Below, in pieces: positions 8,571 through 30,694 of a DNA stretch of 32,150 nt. The stretch lies in UHGV virus genome UHGV-0070112; one strand, given 5' to 3'. The notes under the pieces are model-generated. The model saw only the letters and a program-made list of their open reading frames with translations. It made no database searches and was not told the origin of the DNA. The DNA comes from a virus. The position numbers were made by a program, and so were the translations under genes. Every line of letters begins with the position of its first letter. The stretch's first letter is position 1.

Positions 8571-8990
8571 CTATTTCGTTATTTCCAATAAACCTGCGTG
8601 GACTTTTCTGTGGCAATTAGCACAGAGGACAATACACTTCCTCACTTCATCTTTAAGTCGATTTCGTGATCTGCCACATAGATTGGAAGGGTCGCCTTCT
8701 TTGCTGCCGGCGTTGTCATGATGAAGATCCAGAACAACAGGTTCTTTTTCTCCGCAATTTTGGCATCCTATGAAGCGTTTATATCGAGCTAGAAACTGAC
8801 GGTTTGAACTTGTTTTTCTCGTTCTCGTTGACTTTATTAGCTGTCGCCTTGACTCATTGGTTGCATAACTCAAAGCATCTCTTTCCTTAGCGCACGCCTT
8901 ACAGATATTTTGTAGGCCATCGCTCTTTCCTTTGTTTTTATGGAAATCGGAAGCAGATTTTAACTCTTTGCATTTGCTACAAATTTTCAT
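8571..8990 (-). CDS. HNH endonuclease with N-terminal Cys-rich motif
   Basis: 139 aa; N-terminal CSKCKELK...CKAC and C-terminal HNH motif (LDLHHDN...CANCHRKVH). AT-rich by eye. AGGA RBS. Lies between the two halves of the tRNA-like gene. Confidence 0.8.
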   Translation of the reverse strand: MKICSKCKELKSASDFHKNKGKSDGLQNICKACAKERDALSYATNESRRQLIKSTRTRKTSSNRQFLARYKRFIGCQNCGEKEPVVLDLHHDNAGSKEGDPSNLCGRSRNRLKDEVRKCIVLCANCHRKVHAGLLEITK

Positions 8991-9005: not shown

Positions 9006-9043
9006 TTACAAGGCAGGCGCTCTACCAGCTGAGCTAAACCAGC
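9006..9043 (-). tRNA. tRNA-Thr(UGU)-like 5' half (acceptor, D-arm, anticodon stem 5' strand and loop)
   Basis: Minus strand GCTGGTT-TA-GCTC-AGCTGGTA-GAGC-G-CCTGC-CTTGTAA with U33 and anticodon UGU. The expected 3' anticodon-stem strand GCAGG is absent; the sequence runs into the HNH RBS. Overlaps the last codons of the N6 methyltransferase. Confidence 0.45.
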
Positions 9044-10083
9044 AAATTGCGCATTTCACTGACCGTCTGTTCAAATCTCTCGGTTTCCAGTTCGACACCT
9101 AGTCCCCTTCGCCCGAGAAGAGCAGCCTGCTTGAGCGTTGAGCCTGATCCAAAAAAGAAATCAGCTACAACATCACCCGGGCGGCTACTCGCTGTGATTA
9201 TCTGCTCCAGCATATCCGCAGGCTTTTCACATGGGTGTTTACCTGGATAAAACTGAACAGGCTTATGAGTCCAGACGTCGGTATATGGCACCGTGACCGA
9301 TACGCTGAATGGTCGCCGTAAACGGTAATATTCCTGCTGGAGTTCAGAATATTTTCGGCTTAACGATTGCCAGGTAGCGACAAGCTGGTGGTGAGGTTTT
9401 CCCAGTTCGTTGCGTGAGTGCTTATCCATGGCGATTTTTTGAAACAAAGCCTGCAACTTTAAATAATCGGCTTCGTTCGGTAGCTGCCACTGACTAAGGC
9501 CAAACCAGTGGGAAACCATATTTTTCTTACCTGTGGCTTCTGCAATCTGAGCGGACGTCACGCCAAGAGATTCCCGTGCATCACGGAAGTAAGAAATTAA
9601 AGGCGTCATGACGTGTTGCTTTAACTCATTACACTTTGCGGCATATCCATCGTCTTTGGGCCTGTATGGCCCCTGATAATGGTCGGCAAAAATGATACGT
9701 TCCGTCGCCGGGAAATATGACCGGAGGCTTTCTTTATTGCATCCGTTCCAGCGTCCCGAAGGTTTAGCCCAGATGATATGGTTGAGCAGGTTAAACCGCT
9801 CTCTCACCAACAGCTCAATATCCGCTGCCAGGCGGTGCCCACAGAACAGATACATGCTGCCGGCAGGTTTTAACACTCGCCAGAACTGTGCCAGACAGCT
9901 ATCCAGCCAACGTAAATAGTCCTCGTCCCCCTTCCATTGGTTATCCCAGCCGTTTGGCTTCACCTTAAAGTAAGGCGGATCGGTAACAATAAGATCAATG
10001 GAGTTATCGGGTAGCGATGGGAGGTATTGCAGGCAATCAGCATTGATTAATTCAATACTGGATGTTTTTACAGTATTTTTCAT
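9034..10083 (-). CDS. DNA N6-adenine methyltransferase, beta class
   Basis: 349 aa; motif IV IVTDPPYF near the N-terminus and motif I FFFGSGSTL near the C-terminus, the beta-class order. No adjacent restriction endonuclease other than the small HNH ORF downstream. Confidence 0.8.
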   Translation of the reverse strand: MKNTVKTSSIELINADCLQYLPSLPDNSIDLIVTDPPYFKVKPNGWDNQWKGDEDYLRWLDSCLAQFWRVLKPAGSMYLFCGHRLAADIELLVRERFNLLNHIIWAKPSGRWNGCNKESLRSYFPATERIIFADHYQGPYRPKDDGYAAKCNELKQHVMTPLISYFRDARESLGVTSAQIAEATGKKNMVSHWFGLSQWQLPNEADYLKLQALFQKIAMDKHSRNELGKPHHQLVATWQSLSRKYSELQQEYYRLRRPFSVSVTVPYTDVWTHKPVQFYPGKHPCEKPADMLEQIITASSRPGDVVADFFFGSGSTLKQAALLGRRGLGVELETERFEQTVSEMRNLLV

Positions 10084-12221: not shown

Positions 12222-12587
12222 TTAACAATCTAGATCAAGACGGATGTCTAACATTGATAGACATCCGTCAATAAAACCTTCAGCCATCTGTATCTCGATC
12301 CGGATCAACTTCTCATCTTTCTTTTGCGCCTTAGCTATTTTACGTTTCGAGATACCGTACAGGTAATGAGCCACGAGCAAACTGTGCTCGTATGGCTTCT
12401 TTTCTCGAAGCCTTGCCAAACAGCCTTCTATGATCAGCGCATCATCATCAGTACAGCACAAGCGCGTTTTTCCGCCCTGCGGAAGAAGCCCCTTAAAACC
12501 TGCTGCAATGTGGGAATAATCAATACCGGAGCTGTCAGCTGCCGCCCAGCCTCCCCATAAATCTAAAACCTTTTGCATGTCACGCAT
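12222..12587 (-). CDS. Phage antitermination protein Q (QuuD-like)
   Basis: 121 aa; motifs LDLWGGWAA, FKGLL, CCTDDDALIIEGCLARL match the small Q-family antiterminators of lambdoid prophages as I recall them. Confidence 0.7.
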   Translation of the reverse strand: MRDMQKVLDLWGGWAAADSSGIDYSHIAAGFKGLLPQGGKTRLCCTDDDALIIEGCLARLREKKPYEHSLLVAHYLYGISKRKIAKAQKKDEKLIRIEIQMAEGFIDGCLSMLDIRLDLDC

Positions 12588-15121: not shown

Positions 15122-15520
15122 TCAACCCACAGCTGTACATACATCCACCACTTTTTGATAGCAGACTATGGTGATTTCTACCCTGCCTCCTTTGACGATT
15201 TCACCCCATTCAATAGCCATACGCTTAACCTGGTTGTCGTCCTCCCAGATACCGGCATAAGTCAAAGCATCAAGAAGTGCCTTGTTGTAATTGTCCAGGT
15301 CACGCCGGCGATAGTCTGGCGGATAGAGAATAATTTCTACAGCTGCTGGCGCGGTAGATGGTTTTGGTATTGCACGCAGTTGCTCAATGATCGCTGACCG
15401 TACTGCATGTTTGAATTTACGGCCGGCTGCGCTGACAAGGTGTTTGCCTTTTGCGGGCCCCTTATTTGGGGACCGCCAGTAGGTGTTCACGCTGGGTGGG
15501 AATGGAAGAATAAATTTCAT
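15122..15520 (-). CDS. rusA: Holliday junction resolvase RusA
   Basis: 132 aa; PPSVNTYW and RRRDLDNYNKALLDALT are characteristic RusA motifs. Confidence 0.8.
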   Translation of the reverse strand: MKFILPFPPSVNTYWRSPNKGPAKGKHLVSAAGRKFKHAVRSAIIEQLRAIPKPSTAPAAVEIILYPPDYRRRDLDNYNKALLDALTYAGIWEDDNQVKRMAIEWGEIVKGGRVEITIVCYQKVVDVCTAVG

Positions 15521-15993
15521 TCTGCCTCCAGCACTATTTTCAACTCAAACGGAACATCTCCTCCGCAATAGCAGAGCGGGCCAAGGTCAGACATGAGGCT
15601 CCACAGGGTCATTGACGTATAGCCATTTTCGTCTGTTATCGGGGGCGAAAAGTCCCCGAAGATCCTCGGGTGCTGGATTCGATTCTGCTCGTGTTGTTTT
15701 TCCAAATGTCTGAGGGAAACTTCATTAAGTTTCACTTTTACGATGCTGTTGAGATTGACCGATATTTCTCTGGCCAACAGCGAAGGGGTGATACTGATAC
15801 CGCGAGAAACCCCGCGGGTGATTGTGATAACACCCTTTTTCTCCAACGCCTTGAGGTGTGTTGCTGCTGCATTGGGGGACCGGCACCCCAGCATGCCGGT
15901 CAGTTCGTAAGTTGTAGGCGGAAAACCATGTTTACGCTGATATTCGATCAGGAGGTCCAGGACCTCCTGCTGCCTTAAGGTCAAGGAAGTCAT
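15517..15993 (-). CDS. LexA-like N-terminal DNA-binding domain protein without S24 peptidase domain
   Basis: Start revised to ATG 15993 (MTSLTLRQQEVLDLLIEYQRKHGFPPTTYELTGMLGCRSPNAAATHLKALEKKGVI...), closely resembling the LexA winged-helix domain. C-terminal ~80 aa unrecognised. ATG overlaps the C5-MTase stop (ATGA); its own stop overlaps the rusA start. Confidence 0.6.
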   Translation of the reverse strand: MTSLTLRQQEVLDLLIEYQRKHGFPPTTYELTGMLGCRSPNAAATHLKALEKKGVITITRGVSRGISITPSLLAREISVNLNSIVKVKLNEVSLRHLEKQHEQNRIQHPRIFGDFSPPITDENGYTSMTLWSLMSDLGPLCYCGGDVPFELKIVLEAE

Positions 15994-17960
15994 GCTGCCT
16001 GCTCCTCTCTGTTCACGCACATTTCGGGTAAATTGGCGCGAACCAGCGCTTCGGCGAACGGCGGCGGGACGGCATTTCCACAGCGCGCAACCTGCTTATC
16101 TTTCGCGTATTTCACGCCGCGGTAATCCTGGTCAATGATGTACCACTCGGGGAAGCCCTGCGCCCGGTAAAGTTCGTGTGGCTGCAGCATGCGCATGCCG
16201 ATATCAACGATGCGGTAAGTCACTCCGCCGATTTCCACCAGACCGGTGCATTCCTCTCCGCAGTATTCCTGCAGGAACGACAGCACCTGCTGCGCTCGCT
16301 CTTCGTCATAGTCCTCGACTGCCAGAGTCGTTTTAACCTCGCCTACGTGCTGGCCACCAGCAGTGATAGTCGGCATCGGCTCGTCAGTGCGCTGGCCATC
16401 GCGGCATGTACCACGGAGCTTGATCAGATGAGACGTAACCATTGCGGCATCAGCCTTTGTCGTCATGGTTTGCAATGGCTCGCTAACGTCACGTGGCCTG
16501 CTCTGCCCAGCGCGACCGCCAACACCAACAATCTGAGCAGTAACCAGCGCATGATGATCGACGGTAGTAACTGAATGAGCTGGTTCATCCAAGTCAATAC
16601 CGGCGCCCTGATAATTCCCGCCATAGTGTTTCGCCAGGAATGCGGATACCAGTTGCGATTTACCGCCGCCGCCCGCGGTGATTGTTGCGCTAGGTTCGTC
16701 GGCACGGTGTCCGATGCTGGCGCCGAACTGCCGGGCGATAACCGGAGCGACGACACAGGCGCGCGATTCTTTCATGATGGTGTGAGCGGGTTTATCGAGC
16801 GGGCGTGGTTTAGCCTGGTACTCGCTGCCGCCATTGCCAGCCAGGAACGGCGCCAGCTCTGCTTCAACAATACCCAGAGCGTGACCATTCCCGCCCGGGC
16901 GTTTTGCGGTACCGGCCGTCACCGTCGGCAACGGATCGGTGACTTCCTGCCCGGTAGCTCCGGTTCGGAATTTTGTCAGATGAGGTACCGCAATTGCGTA
17001 GCCGTGGGTTTTCGTAATCGTCTGTAGCGGATCGTCCAGCGCCTGTCCCCGGAAACAGTCGTATTTGCCGCGTGTCGTTGTGTGATTGCACTTCACGATG
17101 AATGGCGAAGCGCTTTCGATAACAAAGCGCTGAATGCCGCGGGCAATCCGTTTTAGCGTATTCTCTGCCAGTGACTTTTTGCGACCGAAGATGCTCGGCG
17201 CGGGGATTGACCAGTCTATGCATTCCGCAGCTGTACGCCACGGCTCCAGCTGGCCCGCCAGCACGGCGGCAGACTTCGGATCCCCGTGCGTGGCTTCCGG
17301 CCAGACTATCGGTTTCCCGTCCCGGCGCATCACCATGAAGAACCGCTTACGGATGGTCGGCGCGCCATAATCGCAGGCGCGCAGCTCGCGAAAATCGACG
17401 ACATAACCAAGCCCGGCAATTAAGCGCTTGGCCTGCTCGCTATCCGGTGAAAACTCCAGAAACTCGCAACACTCCACCAGTGCAGGATGATCTGCTGGAA
17501 TACCGGTGGTAAGCATCCCGACAAATGCATTGAAAGTTTCACCGATGCGTGCCGGATCCGGTCGCATTTCTGCCGCGAGTAACGGACCCCACGTCTTAAA
17601 CTCTTCGACGTTTTCCAGCATCATGACTCGCGGGCCAACATCCAGCGCCCAACGAATGACGATCCATGCCAGCCCTCGAATAGCTTTCTCTACTGGTTTA
17701 GCACCTTTCGCTTTAGAAAAGTGACGACAGTCAGGCGAGAACCATGCCAGGCCGACAGGCTTGCCACTGGTAGCGGCTAATGGGGATACATCAAACACAC
17801 TTTCGCAATAGTGAAGCGTGTCGGGATGGTTAGTGCGGTGCATAGCAACGGCGTTAACATCGTGGTTAATCGCGATATCAACGCTACGCCCTATCGCCAG
17901 CTCAATACCTGTACTGGCGCCACCGCCACCAGCAAAATTATCGACAATAATCTCACGCAT
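15990..17960 (-). CDS. DNA cytosine-5 methyltransferase with a long, repeat-containing variable region
   Basis: 656 aa; motif I FAGGGGAS, catalytic-Cys region FSPDCRHFS, ENV motif MLENVEEF, C-terminal motif-X-like CGNAVPPPFAEAL. About 450 aa between ENV and motif X carry reiterated segments (LPTVTAG, SATITAGGGG, MPTITAGG, LQTMTT, LQTITKT). Confidence 0.85.
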   Translation of the reverse strand: MREIIVDNFAGGGGASTGIELAIGRSVDIAINHDVNAVAMHRTNHPDTLHYCESVFDVSPLAATSGKPVGLAWFSPDCRHFSKAKGAKPVEKAIRGLAWIVIRWALDVGPRVMMLENVEEFKTWGPLLAAEMRPDPARIGETFNAFVGMLTTGIPADHPALVECCEFLEFSPDSEQAKRLIAGLGYVVDFRELRACDYGAPTIRKRFFMVMRRDGKPIVWPEATHGDPKSAAVLAGQLEPWRTAAECIDWSIPAPSIFGRKKSLAENTLKRIARGIQRFVIESASPFIVKCNHTTTRGKYDCFRGQALDDPLQTITKTHGYAIAVPHLTKFRTGATGQEVTDPLPTVTAGTAKRPGGNGHALGIVEAELAPFLAGNGGSEYQAKPRPLDKPAHTIMKESRACVVAPVIARQFGASIGHRADEPSATITAGGGGKSQLVSAFLAKHYGGNYQGAGIDLDEPAHSVTTVDHHALVTAQIVGVGGRAGQSRPRDVSEPLQTMTTKADAAMVTSHLIKLRGTCRDGQRTDEPMPTITAGGQHVGEVKTTLAVEDYDEERAQQVLSFLQEYCGEECTGLVEIGGVTYRIVDIGMRMLQPHELYRAQGFPEWYIIDQDYRGVKYAKDKQVARCGNAVPPPFAEALVRANLPEMCVNREEQAA

Positions 17961-18906
17961 GAGCGGTCCCCCTCATGCTGCCGACCAGCCCACCAGCAAG
18001 GGTGATGATTTCGCTGGTGGGCACGCGCTCCAGCCACAACTGGTTAATATGGGCCTTCAGCTTGTTCTGCTGGGAGAACTCCAGATCCTCTGCGCCTTGT
18101 ACCTGTCCAAAGACGAGTCCAACTTCCAGTGGCCAGATCCGGGATTCAGGCTCAGCCAATGATGCAACAGCATCGGGGATGATCACTTCAGGAGACTGAA
18201 CTGGCGAAACTGGTGACAGGAATTTTCCTGCAGCAAACTCAGCCAGCGCCATACTTGCGCGCCCTTTTGCTTCCAGCTCAACGCGATCGATATAGCTAAA
18301 ATGTTCACCGCGCCAGGTCTTATCAAATACCGCAATGGCCCCGGCAAAGAATGCGCTGGTGGGCTTCTGCTTTTCGTCGGCCGGCACAAACCACGTTGGG
18401 AGATCGAATCCAATACGACCACGAATAAACATGATGTGATCGGCATATTCCGGCCACCATGTTTCACTTGTTGCTGACTTCACGAGGTAAATGTAACGAC
18501 CACCCTTTTCACGCTGCTCGGCGGTATAGTTCATAATATGAGTCATGCCAGTGATGGCTTGTTTTTCATGGTACTGCGAGCGGCTGTACGGCGGATTAGC
18601 AAAGGCCGCTCCTCCGAGTTCTACCAGACGACCAGACCAGTCCTGCGTCAGCGCATTATCTTCAGCGGTATACCATGCCGGGCATTTTGTATTGCTGTCG
18701 TCTGCAAACAGGTCCAGCACCAGCGGGCCAAACAAAGCGTTAACGCCCCAGAACAGCAGATCAGGGGTACGCCATTGATCCCCGACTTCTTTCAAATAAT
18801 GCGAACTTCGCTGGCGCTGTTCCTCAAGTGCCAGGCAATAAGGGCTGACGCTTTTTGTTAAATTTTGCTCTTCTGCGGTCATAGCTTCTTGTACTTCCTG
18901 ACTCAT
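17953..18906 (-). CDS. Phage Dam-type DNA N6-adenine methyltransferase
   Basis: 317 aa; DLFADDSNTKCPAWYTAED and AFANPPYS motifs of the phage Dam family. GGGGA RBS. Has an extra ~100-aa C-terminal region. Confidence 0.8.
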   Translation of the reverse strand: MSQEVQEAMTAEEQNLTKSVSPYCLALEEQRQRSSHYLKEVGDQWRTPDLLFWGVNALFGPLVLDLFADDSNTKCPAWYTAEDNALTQDWSGRLVELGGAAFANPPYSRSQYHEKQAITGMTHIMNYTAEQREKGGRYIYLVKSATSETWWPEYADHIMFIRGRIGFDLPTWFVPADEKQKPTSAFFAGAIAVFDKTWRGEHFSYIDRVELEAKGRASMALAEFAAGKFLSPVSPVQSPEVIIPDAVASLAEPESRIWPLEVGLVFGQVQGAEDLEFSQQNKLKAHINQLWLERVPTSEIITLAGGLVGSMRGTAHA

Positions 18907-19084: not shown

Positions 19085-19543
19085 TCAATCGGAGCACAAG
19101 TCACCTCCGCAGTAATTTCCGGCCAGATAGCATGACCCGGCGGAATCATTCATGTTTCTGGCGTTTCGAACAGAAGCATTCTTAAGACGCAGGTATCGCT
19201 CTCTTGCTTTAGCCGTACAGTTGCTGTCACAAAGTTGCTGCCATACCGTCGCCGCACGGCGGTAATAGCGTTTCTCTTCCAGCTTTTTGGCTGTCGCTTC
19301 AAGGGCAAGAATCTCCCCCGAAAGCCCACCAGGCAGGTACTCTTCAATATCGATGGATCCCGCTACGAAGTAGATAAACCCACCAGTAACTTCAACGCTG
19401 GCAAGTTCCCCGTCGTAGTAAAGGCGATGAACAGCGCTCTTCACTGTTACCGGTTTGGTTCCAGGAAATGCCGCAGTGATATCGCGCAGCATTTTGCCGG
19501 GATTCTTCTCAATAAATTCAAAGATCGACTTGGCTATGTTCAT
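19085..19543 (-). CDS. Hypothetical protein with PerC-like C-terminal region
   Basis: 152 aa; C-terminal KKLEEKRYYRRAATVWQQLC...RERYLRLKNA resembles PerC-family regulators. ATG overlaps the stop of the upstream replication gene. Confidence 0.4.
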   Translation of the reverse strand: MNIAKSIFEFIEKNPGKMLRDITAAFPGTKPVTVKSAVHRLYYDGELASVEVTGGFIYFVAGSIDIEEYLPGGLSGEILALEATAKKLEEKRYYRRAATVWQQLCDSNCTAKARERYLRLKNASVRNARNMNDSAGSCYLAGNYCGGDLCSD

Positions 19544-20451
19544 CCCCGGAACCCCCGTGGAATCGTGGTTTGTACTGGACTAATTGAATTAACATCCCGC
19601 GGTCTGGTTTTGTCCCACGACTCCCTTGGCGGGCGGCCTTTAGCATCCCAACGGATAGCGCTTTGCAGATATCCCTCGAATTTTTTAGGGCCGAAAAGTG
19701 TCTCGGGTCGCATGTACTGGTATTGCTCGTCGTTGCCATGCCAGTGCTCATGCTTGATGTCAATTACCAGTTTCAAGTCGCTAACGGTATGACCTTCGCG
19801 GAGGCGGGCGCGAATGTTCTCCAGCGAGGTCTTAGATTTCTGGTAACGGGAACCGCTGACCAGATTCAGGTGTGCCAGAACTTCGATCGCGTTATCGGTA
19901 ATAACAACTTCAGGATCCGGCTTATCGTCGGGTTCCGCAGGAGCCCGACAAGAAGGTTTTTTAGATGACGGATCTAATGACGGATCTAATGACGGATCGC
20001 CTTCAACCATTGAGGGGTCCTCCCGCAATATTTGAGGGGGTACAGACCCATTATTTGAGGCATCAGAATTTGACCCCTCAAATTTTGAACCCTCAAATTC
20101 TGAGGCATCAAATTTTGATTGTTCACGTGGCGTTGCGTAGAAAATTTTTGCTTCAGCTGCTGCACGTTCCAGCATGTCAACATTGAGTTTATAAACGTTC
20201 GAATTATTCTTTCCGCCCACGCGCCGTTCCTGCTTCTTCAGCCAGCCTTTAGCCTGAAGCTTTTTGATAGCGCTGCGGACAGTATTCTCGCTCTTGGCGC
20301 CGATCTGTCGCTGAATAGTGGTTACCGCTGGCCATGACACACCTTCGTCATTACTGAAATCTGCCAGGCGAGCCATGACCGCTATTTCTGAGATTATCAG
20401 CCCTTTGAAAGCGCATGCTTCCCATACGAGGCCGTGTAATTTACTGCTCAT
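19540..20451 (-). CDS. Replication initiation protein (O-like) with conserved phage C-terminal domain
   Basis: 303 aa; N-terminal HTH-like region, central low-complexity linker encoded by the iteron repeats, C-terminal VLAHLNLVSGSRYQ...LKLVIDIKHEHWHG typical of phage replication proteins. Confidence 0.7.
   Translation of the reverse strand: MSSKLHGLVWEACAFKGLIISEIAVMARLADFSNDEGVSWPAVTTIQRQIGAKSENTVRSAIKKLQAKGWLKKQERRVGGKNNSNVYKLNVDMLERAAAEAKIFYATPREQSKFDASEFEGSKFEGSNSDASNNGSVPPQILREDPSMVEGDPSLDPSLDPSSKKPSCRAPAEPDDKPDPEVVITDNAIEVLAHLNLVSGSRYQKSKTSLENIRARLREGHTVSDLKLVIDIKHEHWHGNDEQYQYMRPETLFGPKKFEGYLQSAIRWDAKGRPPRESWDKTRPRDVNSISPVQTTIPRGFRG
19965..20115. repeat. Iteron-like repeats (candidate origin) inside the replication gene
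   Basis: Direct repeats gacggatctaat x3 (19965-20000) followed by at least six copies of TTTGAGGG / CCCTCAAA-type units in both orientations (20008-20115). Confidence 0.5.
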
Positions 20452-20792: not shown

Positions 20793-21344
20793 TTATTTCT
20801 CCATACACAAAGATTTATTCGCCACGACGCCCGGAGCTGCACACTCGCGGGCGTCACTATTTTCTGGCAGGCAATAAACACGAGAAATCAGGTTGAGAAA
20901 CGTCATCAGCGTGACCCTGAACTGGTAGGCGATATCATTCAGACTTTGCCACTCCCCGTGTGTAACCACCCCATCATCGATATATTCCCGATAGGCGCTG
21001 ACCAGCTCGCCGAGTTGTCCCACCAGCTCCGCCAGCTTCAAACCAATCTCTTCGTTCTCGTCTTCATGAGCTGCGCCAGATACATGGATCCCGTTGTCGG
21101 TTTCACGTGAAAAAACATCGGCGATGTAGCTAACACCTGCTGCCTTCTGCAGGACCATTGCCCAGCCCATAGGGAATATCTGATCTCCACCAGCACGCAG
21201 CCGGTTAAAGATCGCGTCCTGGGTGGTATCCAGAATCTCAGCTGCTTCGATATAGCCACCAGGTAACGCGGCTATTGTTTTACGGATTGCTGCCACCAGC
21301 CACGCGGGCTGTTTTTCTACTTTCCAGGTTGGTTCATTACCCAC
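20793..21344 (-). CDS. cII-position regulatory protein (family uncertain)
   Basis: Start revised to GTG 21344 with AAGGGG RBS just after the cro stop; the track start at 21431 would overlap cro by 59 nt. Occupies the cII position. Confidence 0.4.
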   Translation of the reverse strand: MGNEPTWKVEKQPAWLVAAIRKTIAALPGGYIEAAEILDTTQDAIFNRLRAGGDQIFPMGWAMVLQKAAGVSYIADVFSRETDNGIHVSGAAHEDENEEIGLKLAELVGQLGELVSAYREYIDDGVVTHGEWQSLNDIAYQFRVTLMTFLNLISRVYCLPENSDARECAAPGVVANKSLCMEK

Positions 21345-21372
21345 GGTGTACCCCTTATCTCTGTGGTTCCTA

Positions 21373-21582
21373 TCAAACTTTTTGTTCTTTAAGCTTGCTA
21401 TACAGCTCCGGTTGGAAAACAAGTTTCCCATCGGTGCGGTACGCGGCTTCAGCAGCCCTCCCTTTTGGGATCAAGCGACCGGGTCTGTTCCGCCACTGAT
21501 AAACAGCTTCGCTGGATATGCCAAAGAACTCGGCTACCTTCTCAGCGTTTCCAAAGTACTTTTCAACATCATCGGTGGTCAT
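21373..21582 (-). CDS. cro: Cro-like repressor (HTH)
   Basis: 69 aa with HTH (VAEFFGISSEAVYQWRNR). AGGAG RBS. Divergent from cI across an operator-bearing gap. Confidence 0.65.
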   Translation of the reverse strand: MTTDDVEKYFGNAEKVAEFFGISSEAVYQWRNRPGRLIPKGRAAEAAYRTDGKLVFQPELYSKLKEQKV

Positions 21583-21682: not shown

Positions 21683-22309
21683 ATGGAAACTGTCGGACAA
21701 CGAATAAAATCGCTTAGGCGAATCACCAGAACCTCACAAAAAGAGCTTGGGAAGTTTTGTGGGGTCAGTGATGTCGCAGTTGGGTATTGGGAAAAGGACG
21801 TAAACGTCCCAGGAGGGGAATCTCTTTCCAAACTAGCAAAATTCTTCAATACATCAATTGATTACATACTTTTTGGCACTGAGTTTGAGGGAAACTTAAT
21901 AACTAAGATGCGAAAAGTTCCCGTGATATCGTGGGTGCAAGCAGGATTATTCACTGAATCAAAGCCTGAAGATGTCTTGCATGATGCCGAAAAATGGGTG
22001 GAAACGTCTCTCCGCATCAGCGATAACTCGTTTGCCCTTGAAGTAAAGGGAGACTCAATGACAAATCCTAATGGACTGCCCACGATTCCTGAAGGCGCAA
22101 CGGTCATCGTTGATCCAGACATTGAGCCAATTCATGGAAAGATTGTAGTTGCACGAATAGATGGGACCAACGAGGCCACGGTCAAAAAACTGGTTGTAGA
22201 CGGTCCGCAAAAATTTCTTGTCCCGCTAAATCCCCGTTATCCTAACATCGCCATCAATGGTAACTGCGTCATTATTGGTGTGGTTAAAGGCGTTCAATAC
22301 GAGCTCTGA
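21683..22309 (+). CDS. cI: CI-type repressor (HTH plus S24 LexA-like peptidase domain)
   Basis: 208 aa; N-terminal HTH (TSQKELGKFCGVSDVAVGYWEK), C-terminal S24 domain with catalytic-serine motif KGDSM and downstream Lys. Confidence 0.85.
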   Translation: METVGQRIKSLRRITRTSQKELGKFCGVSDVAVGYWEKDVNVPGGESLSKLAKFFNTSIDYILFGTEFEGNLITKMRKVPVISWVQAGLFTESKPEDVLHDAEKWVETSLRISDNSFALEVKGDSMTNPNGLPTIPEGATVIVDPDIEPIHGKIVVARIDGTNEATVKKLVVDGPQKFLVPLNPRYPNIAINGNCVIIGVVKGVQYEL

Positions 22310-25749: not shown

Positions 25750-25949
25750 TGGCACATGTGAAAGTGAAAGAATTGGTTGCTGCAGCATACGCTGCAGCAC
25801 CTGACCTACCACCAGCAGCAGCACAATTAATGCAAGACATAGCGTCAAGGCTGGATGTCACCTTTGTCGCCCTTACAGAGGCAATGGACCAGAACACCGC
25901 TATGGCCGCGATGATAGCGAACCTGAGCGAGGAAAACAGAAATGGCTAA
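25749..25949 (+). CDS. Hypothetical small protein
   Basis: 66 aa, Ala-rich; ATG overlaps the upstream stop and its 3' end overlaps the ParB-like start. Confidence 0.4.
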   Translation: MAHVKVKELVAAAYAAAPDLPPAAAQLMQDIASRLDVTFVALTEAMDQNTAMAAMIANLSEENRNG

Positions 25950-26727
25950 AAACTCGATCGATGCTTATGGCGCCAGCGGCAAGACAAACGTTCTGATGTT
26001 CGAGCCGGAAAATCTGCATATTGTCACTGACAAGGCCCACCCGCTTTACGATGAGCGAGTCAGTCTGCCGATCGATGAAGGGATGGTGCTGAATATCAAG
26101 GAGCTGGGTGTTCTTGAGCCGATTATTGTCTGGAAAGACCCTGAAAAGGGGCTCACCTGTGTGGTTGTCGGTCGTCAGCGCGTTAAACATACGCTGGAAG
26201 CCAATAAGCTCCTGCTGAAAGAAGGCAAAACACCGCTGCTTGTTCCTGGAGTCGTTAAGCGTGGGTCGGCATACCAAATGGCCAAATACATGGTTAGCGA
26301 AAACGAAATACGCCGACCTGATACGCCGTTAGGTCGCGCTAAGAAAATGTCCGACGCGCTGGACCGTGGTCATGACGAGGACGACCTTGCGGTGTTGTTT
26401 GGCTGTAGCGTTCAGACCGTACGAGCAACGCTGTCACTACTCGATGCTACCCAGGCTGTTCGGGAAGCGGTGGAGTCCGGCACAGTCACCGTTACCCAGG
26501 CGCGTCAGCTTGGCGCGCTCCCACCTGAAGAGCAGCGGGCAAAAGTGGCAGAAATCGAGCTGGCGACAGCTGGTACCAAAGGCCATGAAAAATCCCGTCG
26601 GCAGCGTCAGGTTCTCGGTGAGGCAAAGCGGCGCATCAAATCACGTAAGGAAATCACAAAAGCCCTCGAAGATGCCAGCGGCGAATATGCCGAGGCTCTG
26701 CTCTGGGTACTTGGGGAGGCGAAATGA
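25942..26727 (+). CDS. ParB-like nuclease-domain protein
   Basis: 261 aa; N-terminal ParB/Srx-like region (LEPIIVWKDPEKGLTCVVVGRQRVKH), central HTH-like segment, basic C-terminus. RBS GAGGAAAACAGAA. Confidence 0.65.
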   Translation: MAKNSIDAYGASGKTNVLMFEPENLHIVTDKAHPLYDERVSLPIDEGMVLNIKELGVLEPIIVWKDPEKGLTCVVVGRQRVKHTLEANKLLLKEGKTPLLVPGVVKRGSAYQMAKYMVSENEIRRPDTPLGRAKKMSDALDRGHDEDDLAVLFGCSVQTVRATLSLLDATQAVREAVESGTVTVTQARQLGALPPEEQRAKVAEIELATAGTKGHEKSRRQRQVLGEAKRRIKSRKEITKALEDASGEYAEALLWVLGEAK

Positions 26728-26858: not shown

Positions 26859-27079
26859 AAGTGAAATGCATCAAAGATACCGAGGGTTGGTGGACTGAGG
26901 GTGAAATGTATCCTGCCCGTGTAGTTGCTGGCGGGTTTGTCCAAGTCGGCGACGATGACGATCCCAATGGCGAAGGCTGGAGCGCTGCACCAATGGAATA
27001 TCGGGAAGATGGCTCGATAGTTTATCAGGTCGGCGGTATTGAGGGTGATGCGTTATTCGAGGAGGCCAGCCATGACTGA
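26855..27079 (+). CDS. Hypothetical small acidic protein
   Basis: Start revised to ATG 26855 (MKVKCIKDTEGWW...), 74 aa; the longer track ORF starts upstream without a convincing RBS. Confidence 0.4.
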   Translation: MKVKCIKDTEGWWTEGEMYPARVVAGGFVQVGDDDDPNGEGWSAAPMEYREDGSIVYQVGGIEGDALFEEASHD

Positions 27080-28106
27080 TATCACCGAACTGGCGCAGGG
27101 TGACATCGACCGGCGTTGTCTGGCAGAAAACACCTTTAATTTGATTTCCATGTCCGGCGGGAAAGACTCGTTAGCCCAATGCCTGTATGCCGTAGAGAAC
27201 GGCGTGAAGCACGATCGGGTGTTTGCTGATACGGGCCATGAACACCCTCAGACGATGGAATATCTGGATTATCTTGAACAAAAGCTGGGTCCGATTCGCC
27301 GGGTAAAAGCTGATTTCACTCGCCAGATTGAGGGTAAACGTAAATTCATTGCAGAAAAATGGCCGGTTTCCCTCGTTGAAGAATGCGGGATGTCTCACGA
27401 TGAAGCGGAGGAGCGTATCGCCCGTGCACTGGAAATCCTCCACCCAACCGGTAATCCATTTCTGGACCTGTGCATGTGGAAAGGTCGATTCCCGAGCACA
27501 AAAGCGCGGTTCTGCACGTTCGACCTTAAACATGAGCCTGTACGCACTCAGGTGGTGCTACCGGCGCTTGATGAATATGACGAGGTTATTAGTTGGCAGG
27601 GCGTACGCGCCCAAGAATCGCCAGCGCGGGCTGGCCTGCCGATGTGGGAAGAGGATGCAGATAATACTCCTGGTCTGCACGTCTATCGCCCAATTCTCAA
27701 TTGGCTGCATGAAGATGTGTTTGCTATTGCAAAACGCCATGGAATTAAGCCAAACCCACTATATCTGCAAGGCTGTAGTCGCGTTGGGTGTATGCCATGC
27801 ATTCACGCTCGAAAATCTGAATTAGCGGAGATTTTCCAGCGTTGGCCGGAGGAAATAGCCAGGGTAGCAAAGTGGGAGCGCTTCGTTGCAGCTTGCTCTC
27901 GCCGCGGCAACTCTACATTTTTCCCATCAACCCATGATCCGCGCCGGGCAGAACGTCGTATAGACGTTATCACGGTGGACGGTTACGGGATTGAAACCTA
28001 TCGCGACTGGGCGATGACAACCCGAGGCGGAGCCCAGTTCGATTTACTGGCTGAAGCTAACGACAAATCCGTGTGTAGCAGCGTTTATGCAGGGGTGTGT
28101 GAGTGA
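27072..28106 (+). CDS. PAPS-reductase-like (phosphoadenosine phosphosulfate reductase family) protein
   Basis: Start revised to ATG 27072 with strong GAGGAGG RBS. P-loop-like SMSGGKDS near the N-terminus and Cys-rich C-terminal region (CSRVGCMPC). Confidence 0.7.
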   Translation: MTDITELAQGDIDRRCLAENTFNLISMSGGKDSLAQCLYAVENGVKHDRVFADTGHEHPQTMEYLDYLEQKLGPIRRVKADFTRQIEGKRKFIAEKWPVSLVEECGMSHDEAEERIARALEILHPTGNPFLDLCMWKGRFPSTKARFCTFDLKHEPVRTQVVLPALDEYDEVISWQGVRAQESPARAGLPMWEEDADNTPGLHVYRPILNWLHEDVFAIAKRHGIKPNPLYLQGCSRVGCMPCIHARKSELAEIFQRWPEEIARVAKWERFVAACSRRGNSTFFPSTHDPRRAERRIDVITVDGYGIETYRDWAMTTRGGAQFDLLAEANDKSVCSSVYAGVCE

Positions 28107-29324: not shown

Positions 29325-29543
29325 ATGGAGAAATCTATGCTGAGCCTCGATTGTGTTCCCATCTCAACTTATTGCAAAGAGACAGGCGAAACCCCTGATG
29401 CCATAAATAAGCGCATCCAGCGTGGCGTATGGCGTGAAGGAGTACAGGTGCTAAAGGTCGAAGGCGTTAAGGAAAGATGGATAGATCTTAGTGAGGTTGC
29501 AAAATGGGCTCGACAAAATCGCCTAAACTCCCGCGCGGCGTAA
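29325..29543 (+). CDS. xis: Excisionase-like protein
   Basis: 72 aa, immediately upstream of and overlapping the integrase gene; small basic HTH-like protein. True start may be the ATG at 29337. Confidence 0.5.
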   Translation: MEKSMLSLDCVPISTYCKETGETPDAINKRIQRGVWREGVQVLKVEGVKERWIDLSEVAKWARQNRLNSRAA

Positions 29544-30694
29544 CGATCAGGAAACATAGTACTGGGGAAACTATCAATATTACCTTTACCTATAAGGGGG
29601 TGAAATGCCGGGAACCTTTATCAAACCTTGAAGTTAATAGCAAAAACATAAAATACGCCGAGCGAACACTCGGCGAAATACACAATAAAATTGAGCGGGG
29701 TACATTCAATTATGGTGAACACTTTCCCCGTTCGGCACGACTTAAAATATTTGGTAATGCTTCAACAGGAAAAACGGTAAAAAATTATCTCGATGAATAT
29801 CTTGTAATTTGTGAAACGAGAAAATTATCTCCTTCAACAATCGGCGGATATAAGAAATGTTTAAATGCTTTGGCATCACTTCACGTTTTTCCTGCCAGTG
29901 AATTAACACCTGCTGCTTTAAAAACATGGATCCAGAGTCAGAAAACGACATTAAAAACGATTAGGAACCAACTTTCATTCCTACGCTCAGCACTGGATGA
30001 AGCTGTGACTGATGGTGTATTACAGATTAACCCAGTTTCACTGGTGACAGCCTCGCGCTACCAGAGCAGTAAAACCGAGGATGAAAGTGATTATATTGTT
30101 GATCCGCTTTCACCGGCCGAGGTTGAAGCGCTTTTGCATGCCGCAGGTAACAAGCAGTGGGAAAACATATTCCGCTTTGCAATTGAAACCGGGCTACGTA
30201 GTTCTGAACTCTGCGCCCTCCGTTGGCGCGATATCGACTTTATCGGCAAAACAGCGCATGTGCAAAATGCCAGCGTAGTGGGGGTAATTAAGGGCACGAA
30301 AACTAAAGCTGGAACACGTAAAGTTGAGTTAACCGAAGAAGCCTTGTATGCCCTGATTTCTCAGAAGCCTTTCACCTTTATTAAAGATGCAACGATCTTT
30401 GAGGATCCCAAGACAGAAAAACCATGGGCGGGTGCCGATGCGATAAGAAAGAAAGCTTGGGTGCCAACTTTACGCAAAGCCGGGATCAGGTACCGCAATC
30501 CATACCAGACCAGGCATACGTTCGCGACCAGGCATATTAGTCGAGGCGCTAACCTGTTCTGGCTCGCATCGCAGATGGGACACAAAGGGCCTGAAATGTT
30601 GTTCAGGCATTATGGACGCTATCTGAAGGAGTATGACGGCAACACTGAAAAACGACCCAAGCTGGTCAGCGGTGGAACCTCAAAGGAGCCGTAA
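29504..30694 (+). CDS. int: Tyrosine integrase (lambda-Int family)
   Basis: 396 aa; C-terminal catalytic region with RHTFATRHISRGANLFWLASQMGHKGPEMLFRHYGRY (R, H-x-x-R, Y). Last phage gene before the attachment core. Confidence 0.85.
   Translation: MGSTKSPKLPRGVTIRKHSTGETINITFTYKGVKCREPLSNLEVNSKNIKYAERTLGEIHNKIERGTFNYGEHFPRSARLKIFGNASTGKTVKNYLDEYLVICETRKLSPSTIGGYKKCLNALASLHVFPASELTPAALKTWIQSQKTTLKTIRNQLSFLRSALDEAVTDGVLQINPVSLVTASRYQSSKTEDESDYIVDPLSPAEVEALLHAAGNKQWENIFRFAIETGLRSSELCALRWRDIDFIGKTAHVQNASVVGVIKGTKTKAGTRKVELTEEALYALISQKPFTFIKDATIFEDPKTEKPWAGADAIRKKAWVPTLRKAGIRYRNPYQTRHTFATRHISRGANLFWLASQMGHKGPEMLFRHYGRYLKEYDGNTEKRPKLVSGGTSKEP

Follow-up and report, generated by a model that had tools for sequence, protein, structure and literature searches.

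How many different sequences can a single cytosine methyltransferase recognise, and which part of the protein would read them? This question is raised by a gene in the virus genome UHGV-0070112, which was analysed over its whole stretch of 32,150 nucleotides (the window) and is a lambdoid Klebsiella prophage. The gene lies on the minus strand and encodes a C5-cytosine DNA methyltransferase of 656 amino acids (aa), with a long reiterated region in which an earlier note, made from the sequence alone, had suspected several target-recognition modules. The reading favoured here, with a probability of roughly 60%, is that the protein is an orphan prophage enzyme whose seven tandem modules would serve as alternative DNA-reading elements, giving several targets and broad protection. 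Such protection by the family of large orphan phage 5-methylcytosine (m5C) methyltransferases is known already, and the window protein is a further member; unrecognised in the searched literature is a tandem, turnover-prone array as the likely basis of the breadth.

By its motifs and fold matches, the protein is a complete C5-cytosine methyltransferase. The Pfam family PF00145 (C-5 cytosine DNA methylase) matches it in three stretches (E 6.5e-19), as do PHROG families 23072 and 116 (‘DNA methyltransferase’), and all features of C5 enzymes are present: F-x-G-x-G, the catalytic Cys, ENV, R-x-R, motif IX and the GN of motif X. The open reading frame (ORF) and catalytic motifs named in the earlier note were recovered in full by ORF listing, PF00145 and motif search. 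In motif IV, residues S75, P76, C78, H80 and S82 are invariant in the homologue alignments, and Asp77 aligns with the Pro of the ‘PC’ dipeptide in 3g7u (prophage CP-933R). S-P-D-C-[RK]-H-F-S is the family-wide form of this motif, with Asp replacing the near-universal Pro. Motif VIII, which carries Thr in place of the usual Gln, can be aligned to that of 3g7u and, with a profile built from five short homologues, to M.HhaI as well. ENV and motif X, previously put ~450 aa apart, are separated by 509 aa; the variable region from motif VIII to motif IX accounts for ~380 aa.

Motif X also bears on the group that is transferred. In principle, the protein could be a C5-carboxymethyltransferase like phage CmoX, using carboxy-S-adenosylmethionine (Cx-SAM) from host CmoA. 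Enterobacteria make Cx-SAM, and the CmoX entry 8yf3 is the best PDB sequence match of a profile of short family members (E 9e-9) and is also among the structural matches. The selectivity of CmoX depends on Arg350, which replaces the Asn of motif X (PMC12783734). In the window protein this Asn is retained (Asn629), and GN is invariant in the family, which indicates methyl rather than carboxymethyl transfer. Moreover, the window contains no CmoA or CmoY gene, and relatives block m5C-sensitive restriction enzymes when expressed with ordinary pools of S-adenosylmethionine (SAM). Carboxymethyl transfer was rejected on the Asn/Arg difference, and is considered extremely improbable.

The region between motifs VIII and IX is a tandem array. 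The earlier note had counted at least five short segments built around a T-(I/V/L)-T core; they are indeed reiterated, and their number is seven. Each unit comprises 32-48 aa, and its core, D/E-x-P-x-x-T-[IVM]-[TM], leads through a short loop into a hydrophobic strand; the first residues of the motifs are T314, T346, T394, T426, V464 (an SVTT variant), T498 and T531. The pattern P-x-x-[TS]-[IVLM]-[TM] occurs seven times against 0.08 expected (20,000 shuffles, with a shuffle maximum of 3), and the best off-diagonal self-alignment, covering aa 296-565, scores 135 against 33 +/- 5 for shuffled sequences (z ~20). The variable region is thus repetitive, as had been supposed, and not one non-repetitive domain. 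A unit profile, seeded with the seven units and iterated on family members to convergence, recovers all seven at 22-44 bits each, with the 35-residue consensus RGQSVDEPLPTVTAGNHHALVAAFLVKYYGTEGQS.

Two flavours of unit can be told apart, a T-type (TITK, TIMK, VTTV, TMTT) and an AG-type (T[IV]TAGG), and by alignment the units form the super-repeats 1+2, 3+4 and 6+7. Positions Gly2, Pro8 and Thr11 are near-invariant; positions 9-10 and 14-18, which flank T-x-T, are variable between types and conserved within a type. To judge from these alignments, the unit is a fixed frame with variable loops. The repetition exists at the protein level only: DNA direct repeats within the gene are limited to chance-level matches of 15-19 nt, and the array must therefore be old. 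Recent tandem duplication of units was rejected on the same observation. The array matched no family in Pfam, and the unit profile matched no solved structure in a search of all PDB sequences.

Comparison of close relatives reveals that whole units come and go. The closest homologues are prophage proteins of Klebsiella and Raoultella with 85-100% identity and lengths of 619, 653, 656 and 695 aa. In alignments of homologues with 99-100% identity outside the affected units, the differences are whole units that keep the register: in P0001, unit 4 is followed by an additional unit of 39 aa (LDKPLGTVVAGGGKHAVV), an insertion present in the 695-aa homologues; P0028 has lost unit 6 (37 aa), and in P0022 unit 6 is swapped for a different version. 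To describe such changes across the family, ~2,800 units were clustered and each protein was written as a string of unit types. The string of the window protein is DEFAGBC; those of relatives include DEFAAGBC, DEAABBC, DEFAABBC, DEFAGC and many others. In proteins whose N-terminal cores are at least 95% identical, units 4-6 average only 72-86% identity, and some proteins with 75-85% identical cores share units that are 100% identical. On this evidence, unit identity is decoupled from core identity.

The same architecture extends over a large family. At E <= 1e-30, a search of 1.84 billion representative proteins gave 2,497 clusters. The 150 best of these, as representatives from clustering at 50%, are 403-1113 aa long and have 1-13 units, with a correlation of 0.63 between unit count and length. 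Minimal family members have two units, an AG-type one and then a final unit, TITTKDRFGLV, that runs into motif IX. The last threonine-leucine-type (TL) unit of short relatives, DEPLHTITTKDRFGLV, stands directly before motif IX. In the window protein and its close relatives a helix (EERAQQVLSFLQEYC; aa 553-567; predicted local distance difference test, pLDDT, 85-90) replaces the final TL loop, so that this subfamily has nothing at the canonical TL position.

What such arrays do can be approached through relatives with laboratory data. With the array alone as tblastn query, 71 phage records were matched, among them Aeromonas phage phiARM81mr, Paracoccus phage Pyei1 and Rhizobium phage RR1-A; the records further include Pseudomonas F116, Pectobacterium ZF40 and Myxococcus Mx4. 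ARM81mr_p29 has five units and is 49% identical to the window protein over 500 aa (E 5e-152); Pyei1_p05 has eight and is 40% identical over the full length (E 1e-151); the RR1-A enzyme has nine. The enzymes ARM81mr_p29 and ARM81ld_p31 were reportedly described by Dziewit and Radlinska in 2016. Pyei1_p05 is in turn ~69% identical to JCM7686_0772 and JCM7686_2655 from prophages of Paracoccus aminophilus (PMC6536676); it is through Pyei1_p05, not by direct alignment, that the window protein is related to these two. A search of a genome collection with Pyei1_p05 found 55 Rhodobacterales and other loci, with strain JCM 7686 not among them.

When cloned in E. coli, JCM7686_0772 and JCM7686_2655 displayed ‘relaxed substrate specificity’ (Dziewit et al. 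2014, PMC3925955), with partial protection against 16 of 28 restriction enzymes (PMC3925955 Additional file 8). Protection was seen for AluI (AGCT), BglI, Bme1390I (CCNGG), BsuRI (GGCC), CaiI, EcoO109I, EcoRII (CCWGG), Hin6I (GCGC), HpaII and MspI (both CCGG), HpyF10VI, NciI (CCSGG), PauI, PvuII, TaiI (ACGT) and XhoI, whereas CGCG, TCGCGA, GATC, GGNNCC, CCWWGG, CTAG, CATG, GANTC, CCGCTC, ACGCGT and CCATGG were fully cut (PMC3925955). The ARM81 phage enzymes are also reported to have relaxed specificity, and large phage m5C enzymes are widespread in Alpha- and Gammaproteobacteria, with RR1-A named as a homologue (PMC5537653). The idea that one enzyme guards against several restriction systems is thereby borne out for relatives. 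Since tested members of the family protect against many restriction enzymes, the window enzyme probably also carries out broad anti-restriction methylation.

The likeness to the large Paracoccus (Pam-1/Pam-5) and Aeromonas (ARM81) m5C enzymes is that of one full-length family. Shared are the SPDC[KR]HFS, ENV, R-K-R and GN motifs, a tandem array of 5-9 units, the orphan and prophage-borne state and the position adjoining replication genes; in the case of ARM81mr_p29, the genes immediately downstream are the replication genes O and P. The 656-aa window protein also fits the size class of ~560-700 aa. It differs in its host, a Klebsiella lambdoid prophage, in unit number and types, in the coupling of its gene to a Dam-type gene, and in the helical insert that replaces the final canonical TL unit.

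‘Relaxed specificity’, not multispecificity, is the term used by the experimental authors (PMC3925955, PMC5537653), and their interpretation is the main rival to the favoured one. It holds that the array acts collectively as a single reading head, an extended or flexible stretch whose loose fit to DNA yields a short, degenerate target (a di- or trinucleotide with CC or GC, for example), with the units having a structural role. A di- or trinucleotide rule leaves the selectivity of the Paracoccus enzymes unexplained: protection covers GCGC and ACGT, while CGCG, ACGCGT and TCGCGA remain open to cleavage; it covers CCGG and CCNGG, yet neither CCWWGG nor CCATGG; and it covers GGCC and RGGNCCY, yet not GGNNCC. 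For this reason, several discrete targets of 4-5 bp appear to fit the data better than one degenerate motif. The protected sites fall into ~6-8 groups, a number of the same order as that of the units (8-9), although this agreement is only suggestive.

Enzymes with several targets are established for Bacillus phages. The multispecific C5 enzymes compared here are those of SPR, phi3T, rho11s, SPbeta and H2, plus M.BssHII and M.BceSV; the original SPR, rho11s and H2 genes were retrieved and translated for this purpose. SPR has three TL-like motifs (PTITT, HTLSA and FTVNT), and its triple specificity is said to be the title claim of Guenthert and Reiners 1987. The rho11s and H2 enzymes have four TL motifs each, spaced by 41-47 aa, with a significant internal repeat (z ~9); across all three proteins the spacing is 30-48 aa. 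As in the window protein, a single core carries tandem modules between motifs VIII and IX, each of ~40-50 aa and with one T-[LIV] motif. The earlier note had placed its reiterated segments exactly where multispecific enzymes have their recognition domains; the modular segments do lie there, whereas the match of the units themselves to SPR, rho11s and H2 is not significant. Like the window gene, the Bacillus genes are phage-borne, orphan and silent in lysogens, and relatives differ by whole modules (PMC12707154, PMC3526280). The differences lie in the core (SPDC in the window protein, PCQ in the Bacillus enzymes), in the number of modules (3-4 in the Bacillus enzymes, seven in the window protein and as many as 13 in its family) and in the modules themselves, which in the window protein are recognisably homologous to each other and alternate between two flavours.

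Other methyltransferases provide more distant points of reference. M.HhaI, M.HaeIII and 3g7u have the same catalytic fold and motifs, but only one recognition domain of ~80-150 aa with a single TL motif, against ~380 aa and seven motifs in the window protein. The unit core T-I-T-A-G-G-G-G resembles what we take to be the TL and glycine-rich Loop 2 of M.HhaI. Both M.HhaI and M.HaeIII recognise their DNA targets with a pair of loops that surround the conserved TL dipeptide (PMC2790894). The non-specific prophage adenine methyltransferases M.EcoGII, M.CsaIII and M.BceSVII are likewise silent and broad-range and shield exported DNA (PMC12707154, PMC3526280); they differ in chemistry (N6-adenine) and fold class, and their breadth comes from near-absent specificity, with no module array. 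In the searchable literature, no multispecific or multi-domain C5 enzyme was found for Gram-negative phages, and reviews assign multi-domain methyltransferases to Bacillus phages only (2018, PMC5923457; 2025, PMC12707154). An unannotated stretch of Bacillus phage phi105 (KY197768.1, 29539-29745) matches aa 195-263 of the array query with 57% identity (E 2e-12); this could be the relic of a gene or else a small ORF that contains a unit.

These comparisons suggest how the window enzyme might work. A single core, made up of motifs I-VIII and IX-X, carries the seven-module array at the position of the target-recognition domain. The frame of each module (Gly, Pro, Thr-[IV]-Thr, hydrophobic strand) with its hypervariable flanks resembles the TL and Loop 2 of M.HhaI, and the modules, singly or in pairs, would be alternative reading elements for one active site. 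In this way, several short targets could be methylated by one enzyme. Once the prophage is induced, or a cell infected, the enzyme would modify phage DNA as it replicates, and progeny would be pre-protected against restriction by the next host. By analogy with SPR, it is plausible that each unit is a separate target-recognising domain. More tentatively, and with somewhat less than even odds, the array might be a combinatorial library of miniature recognition domains that is larger than those of characterised multispecific enzymes (seven here and up to 13 in relatives, against 3-5), with one short target programmed by each unit or pair of units.

Several points weigh against this picture. The breadth of the Klebsiella enzymes would be carried over from homologues, the closest tested of which is only 49% identical, with five units of partly different types; the protection given by the Paracoccus enzymes is only partial. 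In motif IV, Asp stands in for the Pro of almost every other C5 enzyme. Against the Bacillus enzymes, the unit profile gave only 0-4 bits, though at their TL motifs, and an hhalign comparison of the units with the Bacillus domains was weak (P 7.4e-4, probability 26%), with the TL motifs in register; at the sequence level only the generic C5 core is shared. Finally, since the flavours alternate and minimal relatives keep two units, one functional domain may need two units.

Structure prediction adds to these points. AlphaFold2, run on the window protein with an alignment of 44 sequences, gives pLDDT ~85-97 for the catalytic core and for some of the small domain, and this confident part matches DNMT1, 3g7u, M.HaeIII and M.HhaI; aa 284-539 have pLDDT 20-35 and no secondary structure. 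In a model of the 4-unit relative P0147 (75 sequences), the distal units are unmodelled, and the hydrophobic halves of the last two (368-376 and 400-409) form strands beside the final sheet that leads into motif IX. This second model would also fit units that are loop-strand elements of one sheet. Taken together, the models neither confirm autonomous domains nor show a single compact domain; they would agree with an array that is flexible and docks on the small domain by one end. A single reading head with relaxed specificity gains from the fact that no autonomous unit fold is predicted and that the last units contribute adjacent strands to one sheet, as well as from the di-unit super-repeat and from the absence of significant similarity between the units and proven recognition domains. 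Besides the selectivity discussed above, it is at odds with the gain, loss and exchange of whole units in otherwise identical proteins, which a cooperative fold would tolerate poorly, and with the concentration of variability beside the TL motif, conserved within unit types. On balance, such a head is judged unlikely, if still a serious competitor.

The models also touch on a third explanation, namely a monospecific enzyme in which one unit, probably unit 7 beside the folded small domain, reads the target and the others are inactive pseudo-domains or have a different task, such as non-specific tethering to DNA, processivity or contacts with proteins. Within the array, confident modelling is confined to the C-terminal part of unit 7. 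Inactive pseudo-domains in Bacillus phage enzymes were reportedly described by Lange et al. 1991 (Nature 352:645). In addition, a relative from a Sinorhizobium prophage, Phi2LM21_p23, was inactive in E. coli, with none of the tested sites protected (PMC5537653). Tested relatives, however, protect many sites, all seven units keep the frame with the bit scores given above, and unit types are conserved across diverged hosts, which speaks for selection on each. A monospecific enzyme is thus regarded as improbable.

If the modules of the array are independent reading heads, a 2-kb gene would allow Klebsiella prophages to pre-methylate their DNA at many restriction sites, with consequences for phage host range, for horizontal transfer in Klebsiella, a genus of clinical importance, and for phage-therapy design. 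Gains, losses and swaps of one unit would re-programme the protective methylome of the phage, and the modules, ~35 aa long with a fixed frame and variable loops, would amount to a DNA-reading toolbox. The multi-domain strategy of Bacillus would then extend to phages of Proteobacteria and would explain the ‘relaxed specificity’ of the Paracoccus and Aeromonas enzymes. With the natural one-unit variants P0028, P0001 and P0022, each specificity could be traced to its unit. To our knowledge, no structure, not even one of SPR, has yet shown how a catalytic core works together with alternative recognition domains, and this abundant family offers a tractable system for the question. If the enzyme is simply relaxed in specificity, it is an ordinary member of an already sampled family.

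Table 1. Features of the methyltransferase and of the surrounding prophage; positions are those of the window.
Feature	Residues (aa)	Window position	Strand	Remarks
C5-cytosine DNA methyltransferase gene		15990..17960	-	ATG start, 656 aa ORF
Motif I FAGGGG	9-14	17919..17936	-	SAM (AdoMet) binding; invariant across homologues
Motif IV SPDCRHFS	75-82	17715..17738	-	catalytic Cys78
Motif VI ENV	116-118	17607..17615	-	invariant across homologues
Motif VIII DYGAPTIRKRFF	197-208	17337..17372	-	R-x-R (R204-K-R206); aligned to 3g7u motif VIII
Array of seven TL-motif units	304-564	16269..17051	-	motif pattern, self-alignment, profile
Unit 1 DDPLQTITKTHGYAIAVPHL	304-335	16956..17051	-	T-type; profile 31.6 bits
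Unit 2 TDPLPTVTAGTAKRPGGNGHALGIV	336-383	16812..16955	-	AG-type, long loop; 30.4 bits
Unit 3 LDKPAHTIMKESRACVVAPVI	384-415	16716..16811	-	T-type; 21.8 bits
Unit 4 ADEPSATITAGGGGKSQLVSAFL	416-453	16602..16715	-	AG-type; 43.4 bits
Unit 5 LDEPAHSVTTVDHHALVTAQI	454-487	16500..16601	-	43.7 bits
Unit 6 VSEPLQTMTTKADAAMVTSHL	488-520	16401..16499	-	35.7 bits
Unit 7 TDEPMPTITAGGQHVGEVKTTLAV	521-564	16269..16400	-	helical insert EERAQQVLSFLQEYC after unit 7
Helical replacement of last TL unit	550-564, onward to 577	16269-16310	-	
Motif IX RMLQPHELYRAQGFP	590-604	16149..16193	-	motif search, alignment
Motif X GNAVPP	628-633	16062..16079	-	Asn629 retained
Integrase		29504-30694		
cI-like repressor		21683-22309		
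CII-like		20793-21431		
O-like replication gene		19540-20451		
PerC-like activator		19085-19543		
Dam-type N6-adenine methyltransferase		17953..18906	-	PF05869 E 9e-43, TIGR01712
LexA-DNA-binding-domain protein		15517..15993	-	PF01726; without LexA peptidase half
RusA, KilA-N protein, DUF968/HNH				after LexA-domain gene
Q-like antiterminator		12222-12587		
Third methyltransferase (349-aa N6_N4_Mtase)		9034-10083	-	PF01555 E 1e-40; downstream of Q-like, followed by lysis genes
HNH/EndoVII-like gene		8571-8990		adjoins third methyltransferase

The gene belongs to a lambdoid early-right operon (Table 1): it lies between the replication genes and Q, as does its homologue in Klebsiella phage 5 LV-2017, and its DNA is 96.9% identical to the corresponding stretch of Klebsiella phage Kp4866-6. 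According to the annotation of the window, the neighbourhood contains no restriction endonuclease partner; the methyltransferase is an orphan. The stop of the Dam-type gene and the start of the C5 gene overlap by 8 nt (17953-17960, ATGCGTGA), a Shine-Dalgarno-like sequence (GAGGGGGA) is found 7-14 nt upstream of the C5 ATG, and the C5 stop overlaps the likely ATG of the LexA-domain gene at 15993 (ATGA, 15990-15993). The GTG start at 16020 given for the latter in the ORF listing is probably too far upstream. Because of the overlapping start and stop codons, the Dam-type, C5 and LexA-domain genes are probably translationally coupled. As a rule, such prophage methyltransferases stay silent in the lysogen and become active when the prophage is induced (PMC3526280, PMC12707154).

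Some minor observations concern the neighbouring genes. The prophage has three DNA methyltransferases in all, of the Dam, C5 and N6_N4_Mtase types. PHROG 29443 combines the N-terminus of the methyltransferase next to the LexA-domain gene (positions 1-155) and the LexA-domain protein (145-273) in one profile, which indicates that the pair is conserved or sometimes misjoined. The G+C content is 0.56-0.59 across the methyltransferase gene (16001-18000), against ~0.43-0.55 elsewhere in the window; this could reflect a foreign origin, or just an array rich in Gly, Ala and Pro. In the left arm, a ParB-like gene (HTH_ParB, 25942-26727, plus strand) adjoins a gene with a PAPS-reductase domain (27039-28106, plus strand). 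In RR1-A (L005, 4185-5396), the gene immediately after the homologous C5 methyltransferase is one for a PAPS reductase, and PHROG 33262 (‘PAPS reductase’, 495 positions) matches the Dam-type protein of the window over profile positions 278-490, so that this PHROG may include fused forms. The association of PAPS reductase with phage methyltransferases looks like a recurrent one.

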